Source: Alphaproteobacteria bacterium (GTDB taxonomy: Bacteria > Pseudomonadota > Alphaproteobacteria > MPNO01). From it: a DNA stretch of 64,000 nucleotides. Position 1 is the first letter of the stretch. Every line of letters begins with the position of its first letter. The notes beneath the pieces are model-generated. The model searched no databases, was not told where the DNA came from, and was given only the letters and a program-made list of their open reading frames with translations. The position numbers and the translations under genes are program-made. The stretch lies in NCBI GenBank assembly GCA_965202835.1, contig CBDBCA010000006.1, positions 1,731,828 to 1,795,827 on the forward strand, read 5' to 3'. This document shows positions 8,920 through 49,419 of this stretch, piece by piece.

Positions 8920-10215
8920 ATGACCGAATCGCTCATTGGGTTCGCGATCCTCCTGCTCATGGTCTTCCTGGGCTTTCCGCTCGGCTTCGCCATGGTGGCG
9001 GTGGGGTTCGTGGGGTTCGGGCTGGTGCGGGGCTGGGAGCCGGCGCTGGAGACGGTGGGTCAACTCATTCTCGATTTCGCGATGAGCTACTCCTTCTCGG
9101 TGCTGCCGCTGTTCGTGCTGATGGGAGCGTTCGTCTACCGGGCGGCACTGTCAGAAGACCTCTACGACGCCTCCAACGCCTGGCTGGGGCACTACAAGGG
9201 CGGGCTCGCGATGGCGACCGTCGCCGCCTGCGGCGGTTTCAGCGCGGTCTCGGGAAGCTCGGTGGCGACGGCCGCGACCATGGCCAAGGTCGCGATGCCG
9301 TCCATGCGGCGCTACCGCTACAACGAGAACCTCGCGGCCGGGACCATCGCCGCGGGCGGCACCATGGGCATCCTCATCCCGCCCAGCATCGCGCTCGTGA
9401 TCTACGGCATCATCGTCGAGGAGGATGTCGGCAAGCTTTTCATCGCCGGGATCGTTCCGGGGATCATCACCATCGCCCTCTACATATTCGTCATCAAGGT
9501 CCTGATCACCTTCCGCCCCTCGCTCGGCCCGCGCGGTCCTTGGACGCCGTGGAAGGAAAGGTTTTTCGCGCTGAAGGGCGTCTGGGGCATGATCGTCCTG
9601 TTCCTGCTGGTCCTGGGCGGCATCTATCTCGGCGTGTTCACGCCGACCGAGGCGGGAGGGATCGGCGCCGTCGGGGCCGTCGCCTTCGCCGTCTCGCGCA
9701 GGAAGATGGGCTGGCGGGGTTTCTGCGGCGCCTTGATCGAAGCCGGCCAGACCACTGCCATGGTGTTCAGCGTCGCTTTTGGCGCGATCATCCTGTCGAA
9801 CTTCATGAACATCTCGGGCATGCCCAACCAGATCGTCGATTGGGTCAATTCGCTCGAGATCGCGCCGATCACCGTGGTTCTGGTGATCTGCCTGATCTAC
9901 ATCGCGCTGGGCTGCGTCTTCGAAGGGATCGGGATGATCCTGCTGACGGTGCCGATCTTCTTCCCGGTGGTGCAGAGCCTGGGCTTCGACCTGATCTGGT
10001 TCGGCATCGTGGTCATCATGGTGACCGAGATCAGCCTGATCACGCCGCCCATCGGCATGAACGTGTTCGTGCTGAAGACGATCATGCCGGAAATGTCGCT
10101 ATGGGGCATTTTCGCCGGCATCAGCCCGTTTTTCGTGGCCGATATCGTCCGGCTGCTCCTGATCGTGTTCATCCCGGGGCTGACGCTCTATTTGCCCAGC
10201 CTGATGGGCGGGTAG
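8920..10215 (+). CDS. dctM: TRAP transporter large permease (DctM family)
   Basis: 431 aa, highly hydrophobic, DctM-like sequence throughout. Confidence 0.9.
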   Translation: MTESLIGFAILLLMVFLGFPLGFAMVAVGFVGFGLVRGWEPALETVGQLILDFAMSYSFSVLPLFVLMGAFVYRAALSEDLYDASNAWLGHYKGGLAMATVAACGGFSAVSGSSVATAATMAKVAMPSMRRYRYNENLAAGTIAAGGTMGILIPPSIALVIYGIIVEEDVGKLFIAGIVPGIITIALYIFVIKVLITFRPSLGPRGPWTPWKERFFALKGVWGMIVLFLLVLGGIYLGVFTPTEAGGIGAVGAVAFAVSRRKMGWRGFCGALIEAGQTTAMVFSVAFGAIILSNFMNISGMPNQIVDWVNSLEIAPITVVLVICLIYIALGCVFEGIGMILLTVPIFFPVVQSLGFDLIWFGIVVIMVTEISLITPPIGMNVFVLKTIMPEMSLWGIFAGISPFFVADIVRLLLIVFIPGLTLYLPSLMGG

Positions 10216-32748: not shown

Positions 32749-33545
32749 AGCGTCTCCTCTTCGCCGAGATAGGCCTCGATCACCGCCCTGTCGCGCTGCA
32801 CTTCGGACGGACGGCCTTCGGCGATCTTGTCGCCGAAATTGAGCACCGTGATCCAGTCCGAAATCCCCATCACCAGATTCATGTCGTGTTCGACCAGGAC
32901 GACGGTGACGCCCCGGTCTCGCACCCTGCAGATCAGCGCGTCGAGATCCTCGGTCTCGCGGATGTTCATCCCGGCCGCCGGCTCGTCGAGCAGCAGGAGG
33001 CGGGGCTCCATCGCCAAAGCTCGGCCCAGCTCCAGGAGCCGTTGCTCTCCGTAGGGCAGATCAGTCGCCATGGCGTGGCGCTTGCCGGCAAGTCCGACGA
33101 ATTCGAGGGTTTCCAGCGCCCGCCGGCGCATCTCCGTCTCTTCCCGGGCCTCGCCGAACGGGCGGTGCAACGCCGCCTTCACAAACGATCGCCAGAGCGA
33201 GGGGTAGGTCCGCCAGTGTTCTCCCAGCATCACGTTTTCCAGCACGGTCATGTGCCCGAAGAGACGAATATTCTGAAAGGTCCTGGAGATCCCGAGCGCC
33301 GCGCGCCGATGCGGCCGCAACCGCCCGAGCGGCCGGTCGCGAAAGCGGATTTCTCCCGCGTCGGGCGCCATCACTCCGGACAGGAGGTTGAACAGGGTCG
33401 TCTTGCCGGCGCCATTGGGGCCAATCACCGCGTGGATGGTTCCCTCGCGTACCGCAATATCGACATCGCGAAGCGCGTGGAACCCGCCGAACCGCTTCGT
33501 CAGTCCGGAAGCAAGGAGACAGGGATTCTCGGCCGTCTCAGGCAT
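32745..33545 (-). CDS. LivG-like ABC ATP-binding protein, operon 3
   Basis: LTKRFGGFHALRDVDIAV and GPNGAGKTT motifs. Confidence 0.85.
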   Translation of the reverse strand: MPETAENPCLLASGLTKRFGGFHALRDVDIAVREGTIHAVIGPNGAGKTTLFNLLSGVMAPDAGEIRFRDRPLGRLRPHRRAALGISRTFQNIRLFGHMTVLENVMLGEHWRTYPSLWRSFVKAALHRPFGEAREETEMRRRALETLEFVGLAGKRHAMATDLPYGEQRLLELGRALAMEPRLLLLDEPAAGMNIRETEDLDALICRVRDRGVTVVLVEHDMNLVMGISDWITVLNFGDKIAEGRPSEVQRDRAVIEAYLGEEETL

Positions 33546-34485
33546 TGTCCATTCGCCGCTGGACGAACTGGAACGGTCGCACCGTATTCCTGGTGATCAG
33601 GCCCTGCGGTCTCAGCACCATCATGACGATGAGAACGAGGCCGTAAACGATCAGGCGTTTCTCGTTCTCGAAGTCGAGGAATTCATAGACGGTGTCGTAC
33701 AGGTAATTCCACGGCGCGTCCTCGGTCCACGAGACCGGGATCAACTCCATCGGATCCCGCAGCGCACGCAGGAATTCCGGCAACAGGGACAAAAACATCG
33801 CACCGAACAGCGGTCCCCAATAGCTGAATCCGCCGCCGACGAGTACGAACATCAGGATCTCGACGCCGACAAGGATGTTGAACGTGACCGAGTCGACATA
33901 GGTGGAGTAGTGGGCGAAGAGCGCGCCGGCAAGGCCGGCGATGAAGGCGCCCAGACCGAAGGCGAACAGCTTGATGCGCACGACATCGATGCCCATTACC
34001 TCGGCCGCGGTCTCGTCCTCATGGATGGAATCCATCGCCCGCCCAAGGCTGGAGCGCTCGAGACGGGCAAAAAACACGATGAGGACGGCGACGACGGCGT
34101 AAATCCAGACCAAGGAGTTTTCCAGGAAAGGTATGTTCTGAAAGCCCTGTGCGCCGCCGGTGTAGTCCCATGTCAGGATGATCACCTGAACGATCTCGGC
34201 GAACCCGAGCGTTAGCAACAGCAGGTAAATTCCCCTGATCCGAAGCGCCGGGAATCCGACCCCGACTCCGATGAGCCCCGCCGCGACGCCGCCGGCCAGA
34301 AGACCGAGCGGGAACGGCAGCCCGAGCTTGGCGGTAACGATACCGGCCGCATAGGCCCCCACCCCCATGAATCCGGCCTGTCCGAGAGAGATCTGACCGG
34401 TCTTGAACGGAACATAGAAGCTGAAAGCGGCGATGACGTTGATGCCGGCAAAGATCAGCACCGACCGGATGTATTCGTCGATCAT
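33538..34485 (-). CDS. LivM-like ABC permease, operon 3
   Basis: 315 aa, hydrophobic, LivM-like. Confidence 0.85.
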   Translation of the reverse strand: MIDEYIRSVLIFAGINVIAAFSFYVPFKTGQISLGQAGFMGVGAYAAGIVTAKLGLPFPLGLLAGGVAAGLIGVGVGFPALRIRGIYLLLLTLGFAEIVQVIILTWDYTGGAQGFQNIPFLENSLVWIYAVVAVLIVFFARLERSSLGRAMDSIHEDETAAEVMGIDVVRIKLFAFGLGAFIAGLAGALFAHYSTYVDSVTFNILVGVEILMFVLVGGGFSYWGPLFGAMFLSLLPEFLRALRDPMELIPVSWTEDAPWNYLYDTVYEFLDFENEKRLIVYGLVLIVMMVLRPQGLITRNTVRPFQFVQRRMDNA

Positions 34486-34499
34486 CTCGCGCGCGCCAC

Positions 34500-35375
34500 C
34501 TAGCCCGACTCGATGGTCCGCGTGCCGAACAATCCGGTGGGCCGGTAGAGCAGCAGCAGGATCAGTATCAAGAAGGTGAAGAAGTCGCGTACGCTGGTTC
34601 CGAGATAGCTCGCCGTGAGGATCTCGACCATTCCGAGCAGGATGCCGCCTACCATCGCGCCAGGCACGTTGCCCAGCCCACCGAGCAACATGACGACCAG
34701 CGCCTTGACCGCGACCTCCAAGCCCATATGGGGGGTGATGGCGCTGTTCTTGACCCCGTCCAGTACCCCGGCGATGCCGGCGAGCGCGGACGCGACGATG
34801 AAGGTGACCACGACCACGCGATTGACGTCGACGCCGAGCAGGGCGGCGGTCTCATGACTCTCCGAAGTCGCCCGGATCGCGCGGCCCATCCGGGTCCGGT
34901 CGATGAACAGCCAGAGCGCCGCCATGGACAGGAGCGCGATCACCAGAATGAAGATTTGCACCGAGCTGATGGTTAGCGGTCCGATCCGGTAGAGCACTTG
35001 TTCGATCGTCTCGGGGAACGCGACCTGCTCGCCGCCGAAGATATTGATCGCCAGGTTCTGCAGCACGATGGTAACTCCGATCGTGCTGATCAGGGGGGCC
35101 AGAGGATAGTTCTTGTCGACCGGTTGCACAGCGAACCGGGCAACGATCCAGCCGACCAGGGCGGTGATGACCATTGCGCCGGCGATCGCCACGTAGATGT
35201 TGGCGAAGGCGAACCAGAGGACGATGTGGAGGCCGACGAACGCGCCCACCATGAACACCTCGCCATGTGCGAAATGGAGCAGCCGCAATACGCCGAAGAT
35301 GAGGGTGTAGCCGATCGCGACCAGTGAGTAGGACGCACCCAGCATCAACCCATTGATGAGTTGCTGGCCCAGCAT
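34500..35375 (-). CDS. LivH-like ABC permease, operon 3
   Basis: Real start MLGQQLINGLMLGASYSLVAIGYTLIFGV (ATG at 35375). Confidence 0.85.
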   Translation of the reverse strand: MLGQQLINGLMLGASYSLVAIGYTLIFGVLRLLHFAHGEVFMVGAFVGLHIVLWFAFANIYVAIAGAMVITALVGWIVARFAVQPVDKNYPLAPLISTIGVTIVLQNLAINIFGGEQVAFPETIEQVLYRIGPLTISSVQIFILVIALLSMAALWLFIDRTRMGRAIRATSESHETAALLGVDVNRVVVVTFIVASALAGIAGVLDGVKNSAITPHMGLEVAVKALVVMLLGGLGNVPGAMVGGILLGMVEILTASYLGTSVRDFFTFLILILLLLYRPTGLFGTRTIESG

Positions 35376-46916: not shown

Positions 46917-47693
46917 TCAGCCGTTTGACGCGTCCAGACCCTTGAGTCGCTCGACCGCCTGCTTGTGAAGAATGCGGTCATAGGCATCCTTCGCCGGCAG
47001 TTCGACGGCGCGCTTCAGCAGGCGACGCGCCTTGTCGCGGTATTCGTCCTCGTCCATCACCAGAAGGCCGAGCGCGTATTGCAGAGGCACCGCCTTCGCC
47101 TCGGGCGCGAGCTCCAGCGCCCGTTGAAGAGAAGCGAGAGCGTCCTTCTCCCGGGCACCATATGTAATGCGCGCCATGAACGAACCGACCGCGCCCACCA
47201 CTTCCGCGTGCCACAAGCCCAGGCTGACAAGGGCCGGCACCATCTTCGGATCGAGCCGGAGCGCCTGCTCGGTCGCATCCCGGATCTTTTCCGCATATCC
47301 GCGGTTCATCGCTTCGAACGAACCGATTGTCTGCGCGTGCCGGCCGATGGCTCGGGCCAGCTGCAGATGGGCGCCCGCATTGTCGGGATCGGATTGGATC
47401 GCTTTCTTCGCCAGCCCGATGGCCCGCGCGAACAGCGCTTCCTTCTCTTCGTCCGGAGCCTTGTAGTTCGCGTGGATCGTCACCGATTCCGCGGCTAGAG
47501 CAAGTCCTTCCGACGTTCCGACGGCCTCGGCGATCCGGGCGGCCTCGATGAACCGGCCTTCGCCATGGGCCGCCCGCGCCTCTTCGATGGATTGGGGTCC
47601 CGCCGCAAGGGACGGAAGAGAGGCCAGGACCAGACAAGAGAAGAGCAGGAGGCCGAACGCCAAACCTGCGCGGTGGATGACCTGACAGACCAT
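46917..47693 (-). CDS. exported TPR-like repeat protein
   Basis: Signal peptide MVCQVIHRAGLAFGLLLFSCLVLASLPSLAAGP, then a helical repeat pattern. Confidence 0.55.
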   Translation of the reverse strand: MVCQVIHRAGLAFGLLLFSCLVLASLPSLAAGPQSIEEARAAHGEGRFIEAARIAEAVGTSEGLALAAESVTIHANYKAPDEEKEALFARAIGLAKKAIQSDPDNAGAHLQLARAIGRHAQTIGSFEAMNRGYAEKIRDATEQALRLDPKMVPALVSLGLWHAEVVGAVGSFMARITYGAREKDALASLQRALELAPEAKAVPLQYALGLLVMDEDEYRDKARRLLKRAVELPAKDAYDRILHKQAVERLKGLDASNG

Positions 47694-47876
47694 TGGGGCA
47701 ATCCGCTTTTTTCGATTAGCCGACCCTAGCATTGGGGACGACGCCCAACAAAACATGCGAGAACCGCACACCGACCGCACTTAAGGTCGAATCGGAGACG
47801 CTCTCCCAATATGGAACGGGCTTGGGGCCTGCGTTAACCTGAGCGCGCTGTTGTCGACGATCCTCCTATTTTGCCC

Positions 47877-48038
47877 ATGACCGATTTGTTTTTCGAGCGC
47901 CCGATTCTCAATTCGCCCTATGACTATCCGGCGCGGCATTGGGAACTCGACGAAATCGGCCAGCCGACCGACCGGATTCTGGACTCGCGCCGCCGCAGGG
48001 TTGGCCGGCGTCGGCGACACTATGCCCGGCCTGGATGA
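47877..48038 (+). pseudogene. 53-codon 5' fragment resembling the N-terminus of a restriction-type helicase (Res-like) protein
   Basis: MTDLFFERPILNSPYDYPARHWELDEIGQPTDRILDSRRRR, then divergence and a stop. From memory, this is the conserved N-terminus of Res/helicase partners of Mod-like methylases. Not verified. Confidence 0.35.
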
Positions 48039-48172
48039 CATCCCTCGACGCCAAGGCGAGGCGGCGGAATGATTCTTGTGGACAGGAAGGCACGGATCGG
48101 CCATTCGCATTTGCGCGCGTTGTCCGGGTGTGACGCAGCGCGAGCGAATTCCTGAAACCAGGGAGAGGCGAC

Positions 48173-48370
48173 GTGAAACTGAAAGCGGTCGTTCACGAGG
48201 CGGAAGAAGGGGGTTATTGGGCGGCGGTGCCGGCCATCCCCGGATGCGCGACCCAGGGAGAGACTTTCGAGGAGCTTCTAAACAACCTCTGCGGGGCCGT
48301 GAAAGGATGCCTGTCGGTGGATGTCGAGGAATTCGACGTTGCGGAGGCCGGCAGGATCGGACATCCATGA
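48173..48370 (+). CDS. HicB-like (UPF0150) antitoxin-fold protein, orphan
   Basis: GTG start. EEGGYWAAVPAIPGCATQGETFEELLNNL matches the HicB N-terminal domain pattern. No hicA neighbour. Confidence 0.6.
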   Translation: MKLKAVVHEAEEGGYWAAVPAIPGCATQGETFEELLNNLCGAVKGCLSVDVEEFDVAEAGRIGHP

Positions 48371-48446
48371 GTCCGAACTGTAGGACCGGGAGGAAGGGCT
48401 GAGCGGTGGCGCTGGGTTTCGGGACGCCAAGGACAAGGAACGGCCG

Positions 48447-48737
48447 GTGAGCAGAGACGAGGTCCTGGCCCTGCTGCGGGCGCATAAGCCGGTGCTCGAA
48501 CAACGCTTCGGTATCGCCGATCTCGCCCTGTTCGGCTCGTTCGCTCGCGACCGGGCCAGCGATGAGAGCGATGTCGATATCCTGGTTCGTTTCGACGAAC
48601 CGCCGGATTGGCGTCGGTACTTCGGCGCCCAGTTCTATCTGGAGGATCTGCTCGGCCGCCCGGTCGATCTGGCGACGGACAAGACGCTCCGGGCTGAATT
48701 GCGCCCCTATGTGGAGCGGGAGGCGGTGAATGTCTGA
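48447..48737 (+). CDS. nucleotidyltransferase antitoxin (MNT)
   Basis: GSFARDRASDESDVDILV (GS-x9-13-DxD NTase motif). 96 aa. Overlaps hepT by 8 nt. Confidence 0.8.
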   Translation: MSRDEVLALLRAHKPVLEQRFGIADLALFGSFARDRASDESDVDILVRFDEPPDWRRYFGAQFYLEDLLGRPVDLATDKTLRAELRPYVEREAVNV

Positions 48738-49095
48738 CGCCGGCGAAACGCCGCGAGAATGGCGCTTCCACATAACCGACATGATCGAATTCGGTGAGAA
48801 GGTCCAAGCCTACACGGCCGGCCTGGATCGAGCCGGGTTCGTGGCAAGCGGCATGATCTATGACGCCACGCTGCGCAATCTCGCACTCATCGGCGAGGCG
48901 GCAAACCACATCCCCGAAACGATCCGCGACGCCCATCCGGAGATTCCATGGCGTGCCATCATCGGAGCGCGGAACCGTCTGGCTCACAGCTATCTGGAAA
49001 TCGACGACAGTATCGTCTGGAGCATGGTCGAAGACGCCGTGCCCGCGCTGCTGCCGGCGTTGCGGAAACTGTTGGACACGGCGGGCAGCAAGTAG
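48730..49095 (+). CDS. HepT-like (DUF86) RNase toxin
   Basis: Rx4HxY motif RNRLAHSY. 121 aa. Confidence 0.8.
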   Translation: MSDAGETPREWRFHITDMIEFGEKVQAYTAGLDRAGFVASGMIYDATLRNLALIGEAANHIPETIRDAHPEIPWRAIIGARNRLAHSYLEIDDSIVWSMVEDAVPALLPALRKLLDTAGSK

Positions 49096-49419
49096 ATGGC
49101 GAAACGGAAGAAGTCCAAATCCGTCGAGATCCTCGTTCACGACGAGGCGACGCGGCGGAACATCCCGACGGCGGAATACCACCCCGTCATGCCGGAGGAG
49201 GACAAGGCTCCGATCCGCGTGGCCTACGAACGCCGCAACCGCGACCTCGACCCGCAGCTCGTCTGGCGCGGCAAGGACGAGCAGGCCGCCTCCAAACTCG
49301 CCGTCCAGGCGCCGCCGCTCTACATCCGGAAGAAGGTGCACCCCAAGGTCCTGATCGACGACCTGCTGCGCCAAACGAAGGAACGGCAGGACGAGGCGAT
49401 GAAAGTGTTCCGGGTCTGA
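49096..49419 (+). pseudogene. 107-codon ORF resembling the N-terminus of a Mod-like adenine DNA methyltransferase (probable 5' fragment)
   Basis: MAKRKKSKSVEILVHDEATRRNIPTAEY...NRDLDPQLVWRGKDEQ...PPLYIRKKVHPKVLIDDLLR, then an early stop. The ATG directly abuts the hepT stop. The methyltransferase match is recalled from memory, not searched. Confidence 0.4.

Follow-up and report, generated by a model that had tools for sequence, protein, structure and literature searches.

We examined a stretch of 64,000 nucleotides (nt) from the genome of an Alphaproteobacteria bacterium of the MPNO01 lineage (GenBank assembly GCA_965202835.1, contig CBDBCA010000006.1, positions 1,731,828 to 1,795,827 of the forward strand; hereafter the window, in whose own coordinates its features are given), and found that an interval of about 1.5 kb (47877–49419) is very probably what decay has left of a Type III-like restriction-modification (R-M) operon of the BPTD_3080 family. 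Within this interval, a class I HepT/MntA (type VII) toxin-antitoxin (TA) pair and an orphan HicB antitoxin are predicted to be still functional. The constituents are all of known kinds (BPTD_3080/Type III-like R-M, as catalogued in NCBIfam and PADLOC, class I HepT/MntA type VII TA, HicAB and PIN), and the locus represents the ordinary decay of a known defence operon, though it is unusually legible. An initial annotation, made from the sequence alone, had placed five open reading frames (ORFs), a TAGATG junction and an RX4HXY motif here, all of which we recovered at the same positions. It had also proposed that two short ORFs enclosing the TA genes are truncated 5' fragments of a methyltransferase/helicase pair. 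The methylase was correctly recognized, and both ORFs do match the N-termini of an R-M pair; the methylase's partner, however, is a helicase-nuclease (Res), and the UvrD helicase is a separate protein, which many family members possess and which is absent from this chromosomal site, including in its intact relatives (loci L008 and L011; L numbers denote the related loci compared).

The downstream ORF (49096..49419, + strand, 107 codons) is the remnant of mod. The initial annotation had it stopping early, but its stop codon is the native one of mod, reached in frame across an internal deletion. Its product is 86% identical to residues 1–99 of a 930-amino acid (aa) Type III methyltransferase, the Mod of L008, which scores 1347 bits on PADLOC MTase_III and carries PF01555. 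Homology extends to both ends of the L008 gene: window 49096–49396 corresponds to L008 10367–10667, and window 49390–49419 to L008 13130–13159. The junction (49390–49396) is a 7-nt microhomology, GACGAGG, that occurs on both sides in intact genes. The deletion spans 2,469 bp, or 823 codons, and subtracting these from 930 leaves exactly the 107 aa observed, with codons 1 to ~100 fused in frame to the last ~8–10 codons and the native stop. The N6_N4_Mtase domain (L008 Mod residues 157–483) lies wholly inside the deleted part, and the product accordingly lacks both this domain and the ~930-aa length of a Mod; a Pfam search with the 107-aa product returned no match.

The upstream ORF (47877..48038, 53 codons, MTDLFFERPILNSPYDYPARHWELDEIGQPT...), also present as annotated, begins with the 5' end of res. 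Its peptide matches the NCBIfam model NF046055 (BPTD_3080 family restriction endonuclease) over positions 1–34 (E = 8e-9) and shares 68–86% identity with full-length Res proteins at their N-termini. The genuine res portion, codons 1–40 (47877..47996, +), shares 86% aa identity with L008 Res residues 1–37 and 88% nt identity with L008 5266–5385; past codon 40 the ORF reads out of frame to a TGA, such that one third of it is out-of-frame read-through. The other end of res is preserved at 47990..48072 (+), comprising the last ~27 codons and the native stop TGA (48070–48072). The translation of this 3' remnant, AAAGLAGVGDTMPGLDDIPRRQGEAAE followed by the stop, aligns with the terminal Res tail ...GGSEPDLEYIPRRRSEPAE of L021, L022, L025, L026, L055 and L067, and blastn matches it to Res 3' ends with E = 1e-8 to 1e-5. 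Approximately 2.9 kb of res is missing, with the 5' and 3' remnants left in different frames and the junction at a GCCGC microhomology. Hence, rather than being truncated 5' fragments, res and mod both carry internal deletions that spared both gene ends. Whereas a BPTD_3080-type Res is a protein of ~1000 aa with a ResIII helicase and a C-terminal endonuclease, only end codons are found here, and the domains at residues 166–371 and 884–963 of L008 Res are both missing. The peptide ...GDTMPGLDDIPRRQGEAAE was also considered as a HicA C-terminus, and this was rejected given its match to the Res C-terminus.

Between the two remnants lies the overlapping MNT/HepT pair of the initial annotation, in intact form: mntA (48447..48737, +), encoding a 96-aa MNT nucleotidyltransferase antitoxin, and hepT (48730..49095, +), encoding a 121-aa HEPN RNase toxin, with an 8-nt overlap. 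MNT matches PF01909 (E = 3e-15), PADLOC PDC-S09 (E = 3e-28) and the minimal nucleotidyltransferase structure PDB 1wot (E = 2e-9), while HepT matches PF01934 (E = 2e-26). A PDB sequence search with HepT gave no match, leaving 1wot as the sole PDB sequence match for the pair. The arrangement agrees with that used to define class I HepT/MntA (PMC7641770), with PF01909 as the upstream neighbour of PF01934 and exact motifs in both proteins (GSX10DXD in MNT, GSFARDRASDESDVD; RX4HXY in HepT, RNRLAHSY). Scores fell below the NCBIfam equivalog cut-offs of 60 bits (NF047752 MntA, 42.5 bits; NF047751 HepT_toxin, 35.6 bits), so membership is assigned at the level of the family and not as equivalogs. At 49093–49098 the hepT stop directly abuts the mod ATG (TAGATG), as had been noted. 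The HepT cluster at 90% identity has 15 members, in related loci.

The selection pattern at the locus was directly observable and differs between the two genes. The ratio of non-synonymous to synonymous change (pN/pS) for MNT was 0.07–0.13 against relatives, with zero non-synonymous and three synonymous differences from L003 and L014, and for HepT it was 0.3–0.6 with motifs intact. Purifying selection is thus strong on MNT and weaker on HepT, and the pair is being maintained.

The claim that a HicB-like gene stands here without hicA was also borne out, with hicA reduced to its last six codons. The hicB-like gene (48173..48370, +) encodes an apparently full-length product of 65 aa and is preceded by a Shine-Dalgarno-like GGGAGAGG. 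Its Pfam scores are just below threshold (PF15919, 25.1 bits, cut-off 27; PF21748, 23.7 bits, cut-off 27.3), and tblastn matched annotated HicB antitoxins (E = 1e-4). The HicB of L055, to which it is 77% identical at the nt and 68% at the aa level (68–69% for the HicB proteins of L055 and L063), scores above the Pfam cut-off (29.9 bits), and its gene has a genuine hicA after it (PF07927, E = 6e-15), the two overlapping as ATGA. At the position expected for the end of hicA after hicB, window 48363–48382 matches 19 of 20 nt of L055 2774–2793, the end of its hicA; the scrap, six codons and a stop, occupies 48363..48383 (+). This match to the last hicA codons indicates that the toxin gene was cut out almost exactly. 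A search for a hicA remnant upstream of hicB, over all frames of 47984–48402 against Pfam at E <= 10, yielded no HicA signal. The hicB gene itself is 99% identical in L003 and L014.

A second toxin gene appears to have been lost in the same way. Immediately after res, overlapping its stop as ATGA, the window carries ATGATTCTTGTGGAC, which encodes MILVD (48069..48083, +), the first five codons of a putative PIN (VapC-like) toxin gene, with no homology past codon 5. In L022, L023, L025 and L067 the same ATGA overlap and an MILVDT start introduce an intact PIN gene of 123–124 aa (PF01850, E = 3e-9), and in L021, L026 and L055 only a PIN remnant follows res. The 28-codon ORF that holds the window's PIN remnant has no Pfam match and no PIN domain. 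With PIN and hicA both gutted, HicB has been orphaned by the loss of hicA. The seven loci that share the Res-subtype C-terminal tail ...GGSEPDLE(Y/D)IPRRRSE.AE (...PDLEYIPRRRSE.AE, then stop), namely L021, L022, L023, L025, L026, L055 and L067, together with the window (47990–48083), all continue into a PIN gene or PIN remnant, and have the ATGA stop/start overlap and no VapB gene between res and the PIN gene. Based on this arrangement, the Res tail might act as a built-in antitoxin coupling Res integrity to PIN activation.

Relatives confirmed the expectation that a full-length methylase and Res pair would occupy the syntenic site. The site is flanked by TauD, GSDH, cupin, aminotransferase and TPR/RMD1-3 genes on one side, and by cytochrome b561, cytochrome c', CMD and OMP decarboxylase genes on the other. 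The order in L008 and L011, and in part in L009 and L010, is Res (1036 aa), a 159-aa gene, DUF1828, MNT, HepT and Mod (930–941 aa); these loci derive from two metagenome series that are unrelated to each other. L007 (GCA_022826125.1) has the same order with a Mod that is ~0.5 kb shorter and split into two ORFs. L015 has kept MNT-HepT together with the first 25 and ~42 last mod codons, and has no Res N-terminus (ResN). Taken together, these loci form a decay series, resolved to the nucleotide, at one site, from intact operons (L008, L011), through damage to mod (L007) and the gutting of res, PIN, hicA and mod (the window and L003), to MNT-HepT only (L015). The series shows which parts are expendable (nuclease, methylase and unpartnered toxins) and which persist (a toxin and its enzyme antitoxin). 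An internally deleted Mod of 369 aa was also found in L006, in a different context; the conditions of L015, L007 and L006 represent independent states of decay. Two tandem TPR/RMD1-3 paralogues are present in L007, L008 and L011, and one, aligning to both, in the window, L003, L014 and L015 (window 46917–47780 compared with L008 3505–5067); this difference reflects either duplication or loss by recombination between paralogues.

Synteny also bears on the initial suggestion that TA modules moved into a decayed scaffold, in other words that HicB and MNT/HepT were inserted into an R-M locus that was already dead. TA genes are mobile, and slot content does differ between the window (PIN, HicB) and its syntenic relatives (159-aa gene, DUF1828). 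However, MNT-HepT-Mod occurs with the identical hepT-stop/mod-ATG abutment in the intact operons of L008 and L011, which share the site, and in intact operons of other phyla. Homology of the window to intact operons is, moreover, unbroken from 47 nt upstream of mntA, where a conserved leader begins (48400..48446, +), into mod codon 100, extending from 48400 (L007, L008, L011) or 48397 (L006) through 49396. HicB has as its neighbours what is left of its own hicA and of the PIN gene, whose place in intact operons is after res, implying that the cargo predates the deletions. Decayed loci with adjacent ResN and Mod N-terminus (ModN) and no TA genes, or TA pairs bounded by insertion scars, would speak for insertion, and neither was seen. 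We consider insertion into a dead locus very unlikely, and the window's TAGATG to be an inherited feature of an operon in which the TA genes were resident cargo, as they are in intact operons.

That TA genes are normal cargo was further apparent across the family, for which the census comprised the best 80 of ~600+ genome matches and 79 loci from GTDB. On annotated plasmids, an intact system consists of Res (~790–1016 aa), at least one small gene, Mod (~900–1030 aa) and a UvrD-like helicase/exonuclease, with an extra small gene between Mod and the UvrD-like gene in one of two annotated plasmids. Among the 71 loci, from many phyla, with both a Res C-terminus and ModN, the res-mod gap was <100 nt in 17 and 150–5,200 nt in 54; about three quarters of the genomes thus have something in the slot, for the most part TA and defence genes, a pattern that may be worth systematic study. 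Pfam assignments of 130 slot ORFs were led by HepT-like (10), NTP_transf_2 (8) and PIN (6), followed by HATPase_c_4, DUF2283 and DUF1828 (5 each), YhcG and GmrSD (4 each), AbiEii-type AAA, HicA and HicB (3 each), and other families in smaller numbers. Homologues of the window's MNT and/or HepT (50–90% aa identity) were present in 11 loci, annotated as Alphaproteobacteria, Rhodospirillales, Spirochaetia, Latescibacterota and Opitutales. The hepT gene abuts the mod ATG in 7 of these 11, six of them with TAGATG (L016, L018, L024, L027, L047 and L063, at ~9995–10003, in intact operons), which suggests that MNT, HepT and Mod are inherited together and coupled in translation. The intact operon of L063 (Opitutales) combines the cargo types, in the order HicB, HicB, HicA, MNT, HepT and Mod.

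We also assessed whether the two short ORFs have been reused as small proteins, for example through a regulatory role of the Mod N-terminal domain or its association with HepT/MntA. The 100 N-terminal residues of Mod are unusually conserved across phyla (62–86% identity), the deletion is in frame and has kept the native stop and the hepT stop/ATG abutment, and the 107-aa ORF is present in three assemblies. Nevertheless, between the window and L003 the mod remnant has five non-synonymous and one synonymous differences (pN/pS 1.56), accumulated after the deletion, while MNT has no non-synonymous difference. In the window lineage T13I, D64A, E/D67K, Q78R, E79K and an R to Q change fall at sites that are invariant or nearly so in the family, amounting to six non-synonymous changes at such sites in the mod remnant versus, on the same comparison, one in the 217 codons of MNT and HepT. 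Substitutions at family-invariant residues indicate that the mod remnant is decaying and has not been reused as a small protein. L015, moreover, is down to 25 N-terminal mod codons with no ResN, and a third of the 53-codon ORF is not res sequence in frame at all. Co-option is thus highly improbable, and on the available sequences the 53- and 107-codon ORFs are best regarded as decaying by-products of the operon and not as functional proteins. The locus illustrates what short 'hypothetical protein' ORFs beside TA genes can be.

Database homologues of the 107-aa ORF call for caution in this respect, as they mimic a small-protein family. Of 3,704 homologues found in a protein search, the best 120 were all 101–186 aa long, many with a common alternative-frame tail. 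Those examined proved to be frameshifted calls or genuine truncations: homologues of ~135 aa share the alternative-frame tail, P0003 and P0008 were traced to shattered long-read ENA assemblies, and P0002 is truly truncated. We therefore rejected both a conserved small-protein family and a programmed frameshift in mod, since L004 and L005 have Res and Mod alike broken into many ORFs; both come from a long-read ENA assembly set in which several contig names are tagged _3x_, _4x_ or _5x_. In most of the 79 GTDB loci, Mod aligned at full length with the same N-terminus, and the others were mostly cut by contig ends or interrupted.

Such frameshifted calls, on contigs named for 3–5x long-read coverage, raise the question of whether the genes of the window are really intact and merely mis-sequenced or misassembled. 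What is absent here, however, is ~2.5 kb and ~2.9 kb of sequence, which are no mere frameshifts, and the flanks are collinear with relatives. The 107-aa ORF was also recovered in two other independent assemblies, L003, with the same junction, and a 1,920-bp ENA contig, on which an ORF of the same 90%-identity cluster accompanies hepT and cytochrome b cluster members. The deletion is consequently no assembly artefact, and we regard the chance that the genes are intact as close to nil.

A different use for the remnants would be as DNA, with the surviving gene ends acting as homology arms, or a landing pad, for regaining an intact system or new cargo. The pertinent locus is L014 (ENA ERZ26693581, a contig of a long-read metagenome at 4x coverage), in which ResN, HicB, MNT and HepT are followed by a full Mod and UvrD. 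Up to 49396 it shares 98% identity with the window, and could be taken as an ancestor preceding the mod deletion. Its differences from the window are those of L003 up to ~49150, after which nine private differences fall within 240 nt of ModN (L014 10924–11224 and onward). Homology is bounded on both sides, by an integrase-containing stretch on the left and by the Mod body, UvrD and an ABC transporter, unmatched in the window, on the right. With private differences clustered in ModN and homology bounded on both sides, L014 was rejected as a pre-deletion ancestor; it is either a locus that regained mod through homologous recombination within ModN or a chimera of the 4x assembly.

The L014 mosaic has the signature of a crossover inside ModN, as a landing pad would produce. 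Extra copies of ResN, ModN and the Mod C-terminus (ModC) occur in other family loci, and MNT-HepT-ModN is closer between relatives (92–93%) than the flanks are (77–85%). On the other hand, L014 could be the chimeric contig its coverage and homology limits would allow, homologous recombination can act at any conserved sequence and needs no selection for a remnant, and no second example was found at the site. A landing-pad role is therefore unlikely. More broadly, BPTD_3080-type res-mod(-uvrD) could be a pan-phylum scaffold whose slot is a TA/defence exchange site and whose gene ends are recombination arms, with MNT-HepT an integrated 'guardian' of the methylase, coupled to it in translation, that outlives its host system; we put this forward tentatively, as possible but improbable. 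If it holds, the window's remnants would be a landing pad for regaining an intact system, and L014 may show one such event. What is somewhat novel here is confined to the cargo slot seen across the family and to the landing-pad role that remnants may have, and the evidence for both is limited or uncertain.

Returning to decay of a resident operon, the homologies, breakpoints and synteny, read directly at the locus, are consistent with the following history. The ancestral operon would have had the order res, PIN toxin, ..., hicB, hicA, mntA, hepT and mod, with TA genes as the normal cargo of the res-mod slot, and would have stood between the TPR/RMD1-3 gene and the cytochrome b561 gene in a wider bacterial group. 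Four of its genes were gutted by separate internal deletions, in res (~2.9 kb, out of frame), PIN, hicA and mod (2,469 bp, in frame). Each deletion stopped short of its neighbours, which is why gene ends survive as short ORFs or scraps. In Type III systems Res needs Mod for its activity. It follows that loss of Mod would be harmless and that, once Res is dead, Mod is dispensable.

The persistence of the pair can be viewed in the light of the characterized class I system, in which MntA AMPylates the motif tyrosine of HepT and thereby silences its RNase activity (PMC7641770). By analogy with that system, MntA would have to keep AMPylating the RX4HXY tyrosine for the HepT RNase to stay inactive, and loss of mntA alone would be lethal; such toxicity would favour retention of the pair, which would also be kept by selection, and the deletions to survive would be those that stayed within neighbouring genes. 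Expression, toxicity and addiction as the cause of retention are inferred. Transcription of the surviving genes probably starts in the res promoter region, which has been retained. This region (47781..47876, +) is conserved and represents the putative operon promoter and 5' untranslated region; its blocks GGTCGAATCGGA and TGGAACGG..TTGGGGCCTGCG.TAAC are shared with L008, L011, L014 and L015, and L015 retains them although the whole of res is lost there. Scans for sigma-70 consensus promoters and intrinsic terminators gave no match. The motif TGGAACGG(N3)TTGGGGCCTGCG.TAAC (window 47800–47850) is present in all variants and loosely resembles a -24/-12 promoter, though off consensus.

Several points weigh against this account of the interval. 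Neither the slot of the window (PIN, HicBA) nor its Res C-terminal subtype is that of L008 and L011 (159-aa gene, DUF1828), implying that its direct full-length ancestor is unseen and that recombination must have swapped part of the island. The PIN remnant is identified by five codons and the shared junction context only. The pN/pS of HepT amounts to moderate constraint only, and a defence role for HepT/MntA would explain the retention of the pair as well as addiction, which we infer as its cause, does.

In comparison with known systems, the interval shares with BPTD_3080 R-M (NF046055 Res; PADLOC MTase_III PDLC03632 Mod) the first 37–40 residues of Res and the first ~100 of Mod, as well as the res-slot-mod order, the hepT-stop/mod-ATG junction and the chromosomal site of full-length systems. 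It has none of the ResIII helicase, endonuclease or N6_N4 methyltransferase domains, making it the remnant of a member and not a functional member; and while the family often has a downstream UvrD-like helicase, the window's site does not. In the library searched, no paper contained the term 'BPTD_3080'. With the class I HepT/MntA of Shewanella oneidensis (SO_3166/SO_3165; PMC7641770) the window's pair shares overlapping genes, with PF01909 upstream of PF01934, and exact motifs. It differs in that its clade is carried within an R-M operon, hepT lying directly against mod, and in scoring below the equivalog cut-offs.

The association of HEPN/MNT genes with R-M operons has already been published (PMC3710099), and HEPN genes embedded in R-M operons were described by Anantharaman et al. 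2013 (PMC3710099), with the PrrC-based guardian idea also in PMC12707154. PrrC of the EcoprrI Type IC locus likewise is a HEPN RNase gene between R-M subunit genes for which a second-line or 'guardian' role has been proposed, but it is an ABC-ATPase-HEPN anticodon nuclease that the R-M complex itself keeps inactive. Unlike PrrC, the window's HepT comes with an MNT antitoxin of its own and has outlasted the R-M system, implying that its neutralization is independent of R-M proteins. Relative to type II HicAB, the window's HicB has a probable N-terminal HicB fold, and in L055, the source of its closest homologue (68% aa), a genuine HicA comes next; however, at 65 aa it is without the DNA-binding C-terminal domain, and its hicA is deleted but for the last six codons.

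Base composition offered a weak signal. The region had been described as visibly lower in G+C content (GC) than its surroundings, and at 0.6325 it is indeed below the window mean of 0.6605, yet by only 1.35 standard deviations (0.021 for same-size windows), with 10% of such windows as low (10th percentile). The lowest-GC stretch of the 64-kb window is at ~33050–35200 (about 0.613–0.618 in 1.5-kb windows), below the islet. Within the 64-kb window no further copies of Res, Mod, UvrD, HicA or PIN were found. Between the window and its relatives, identity at the nt level was 77–85% in the flanks and 91–93% in the MNT-HepT-ModN block.

Some additional structures were observed elsewhere in the family. 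Extra copies of gene ends lie near the cargo in several loci (ResN three times in L037; ModN twice in L019, L055 and L086; downstream ModC pieces in L021, L027, L028, L045 and L063), and these duplicated ends may be scars of cassette exchange by recombination. In L064 (2874–3833), mod is followed by tandem 274-nt repeats, each with the last 24 Mod codons and broken by an N run, which may be genuine or a product of assembly. Finally, an insertion of ~430–470 nt in one position near Mod residue ~820, which may be a domain kept in frame or an inserted element, was shared by L041, L042, L063 and L086, loci with differing taxonomic labels.

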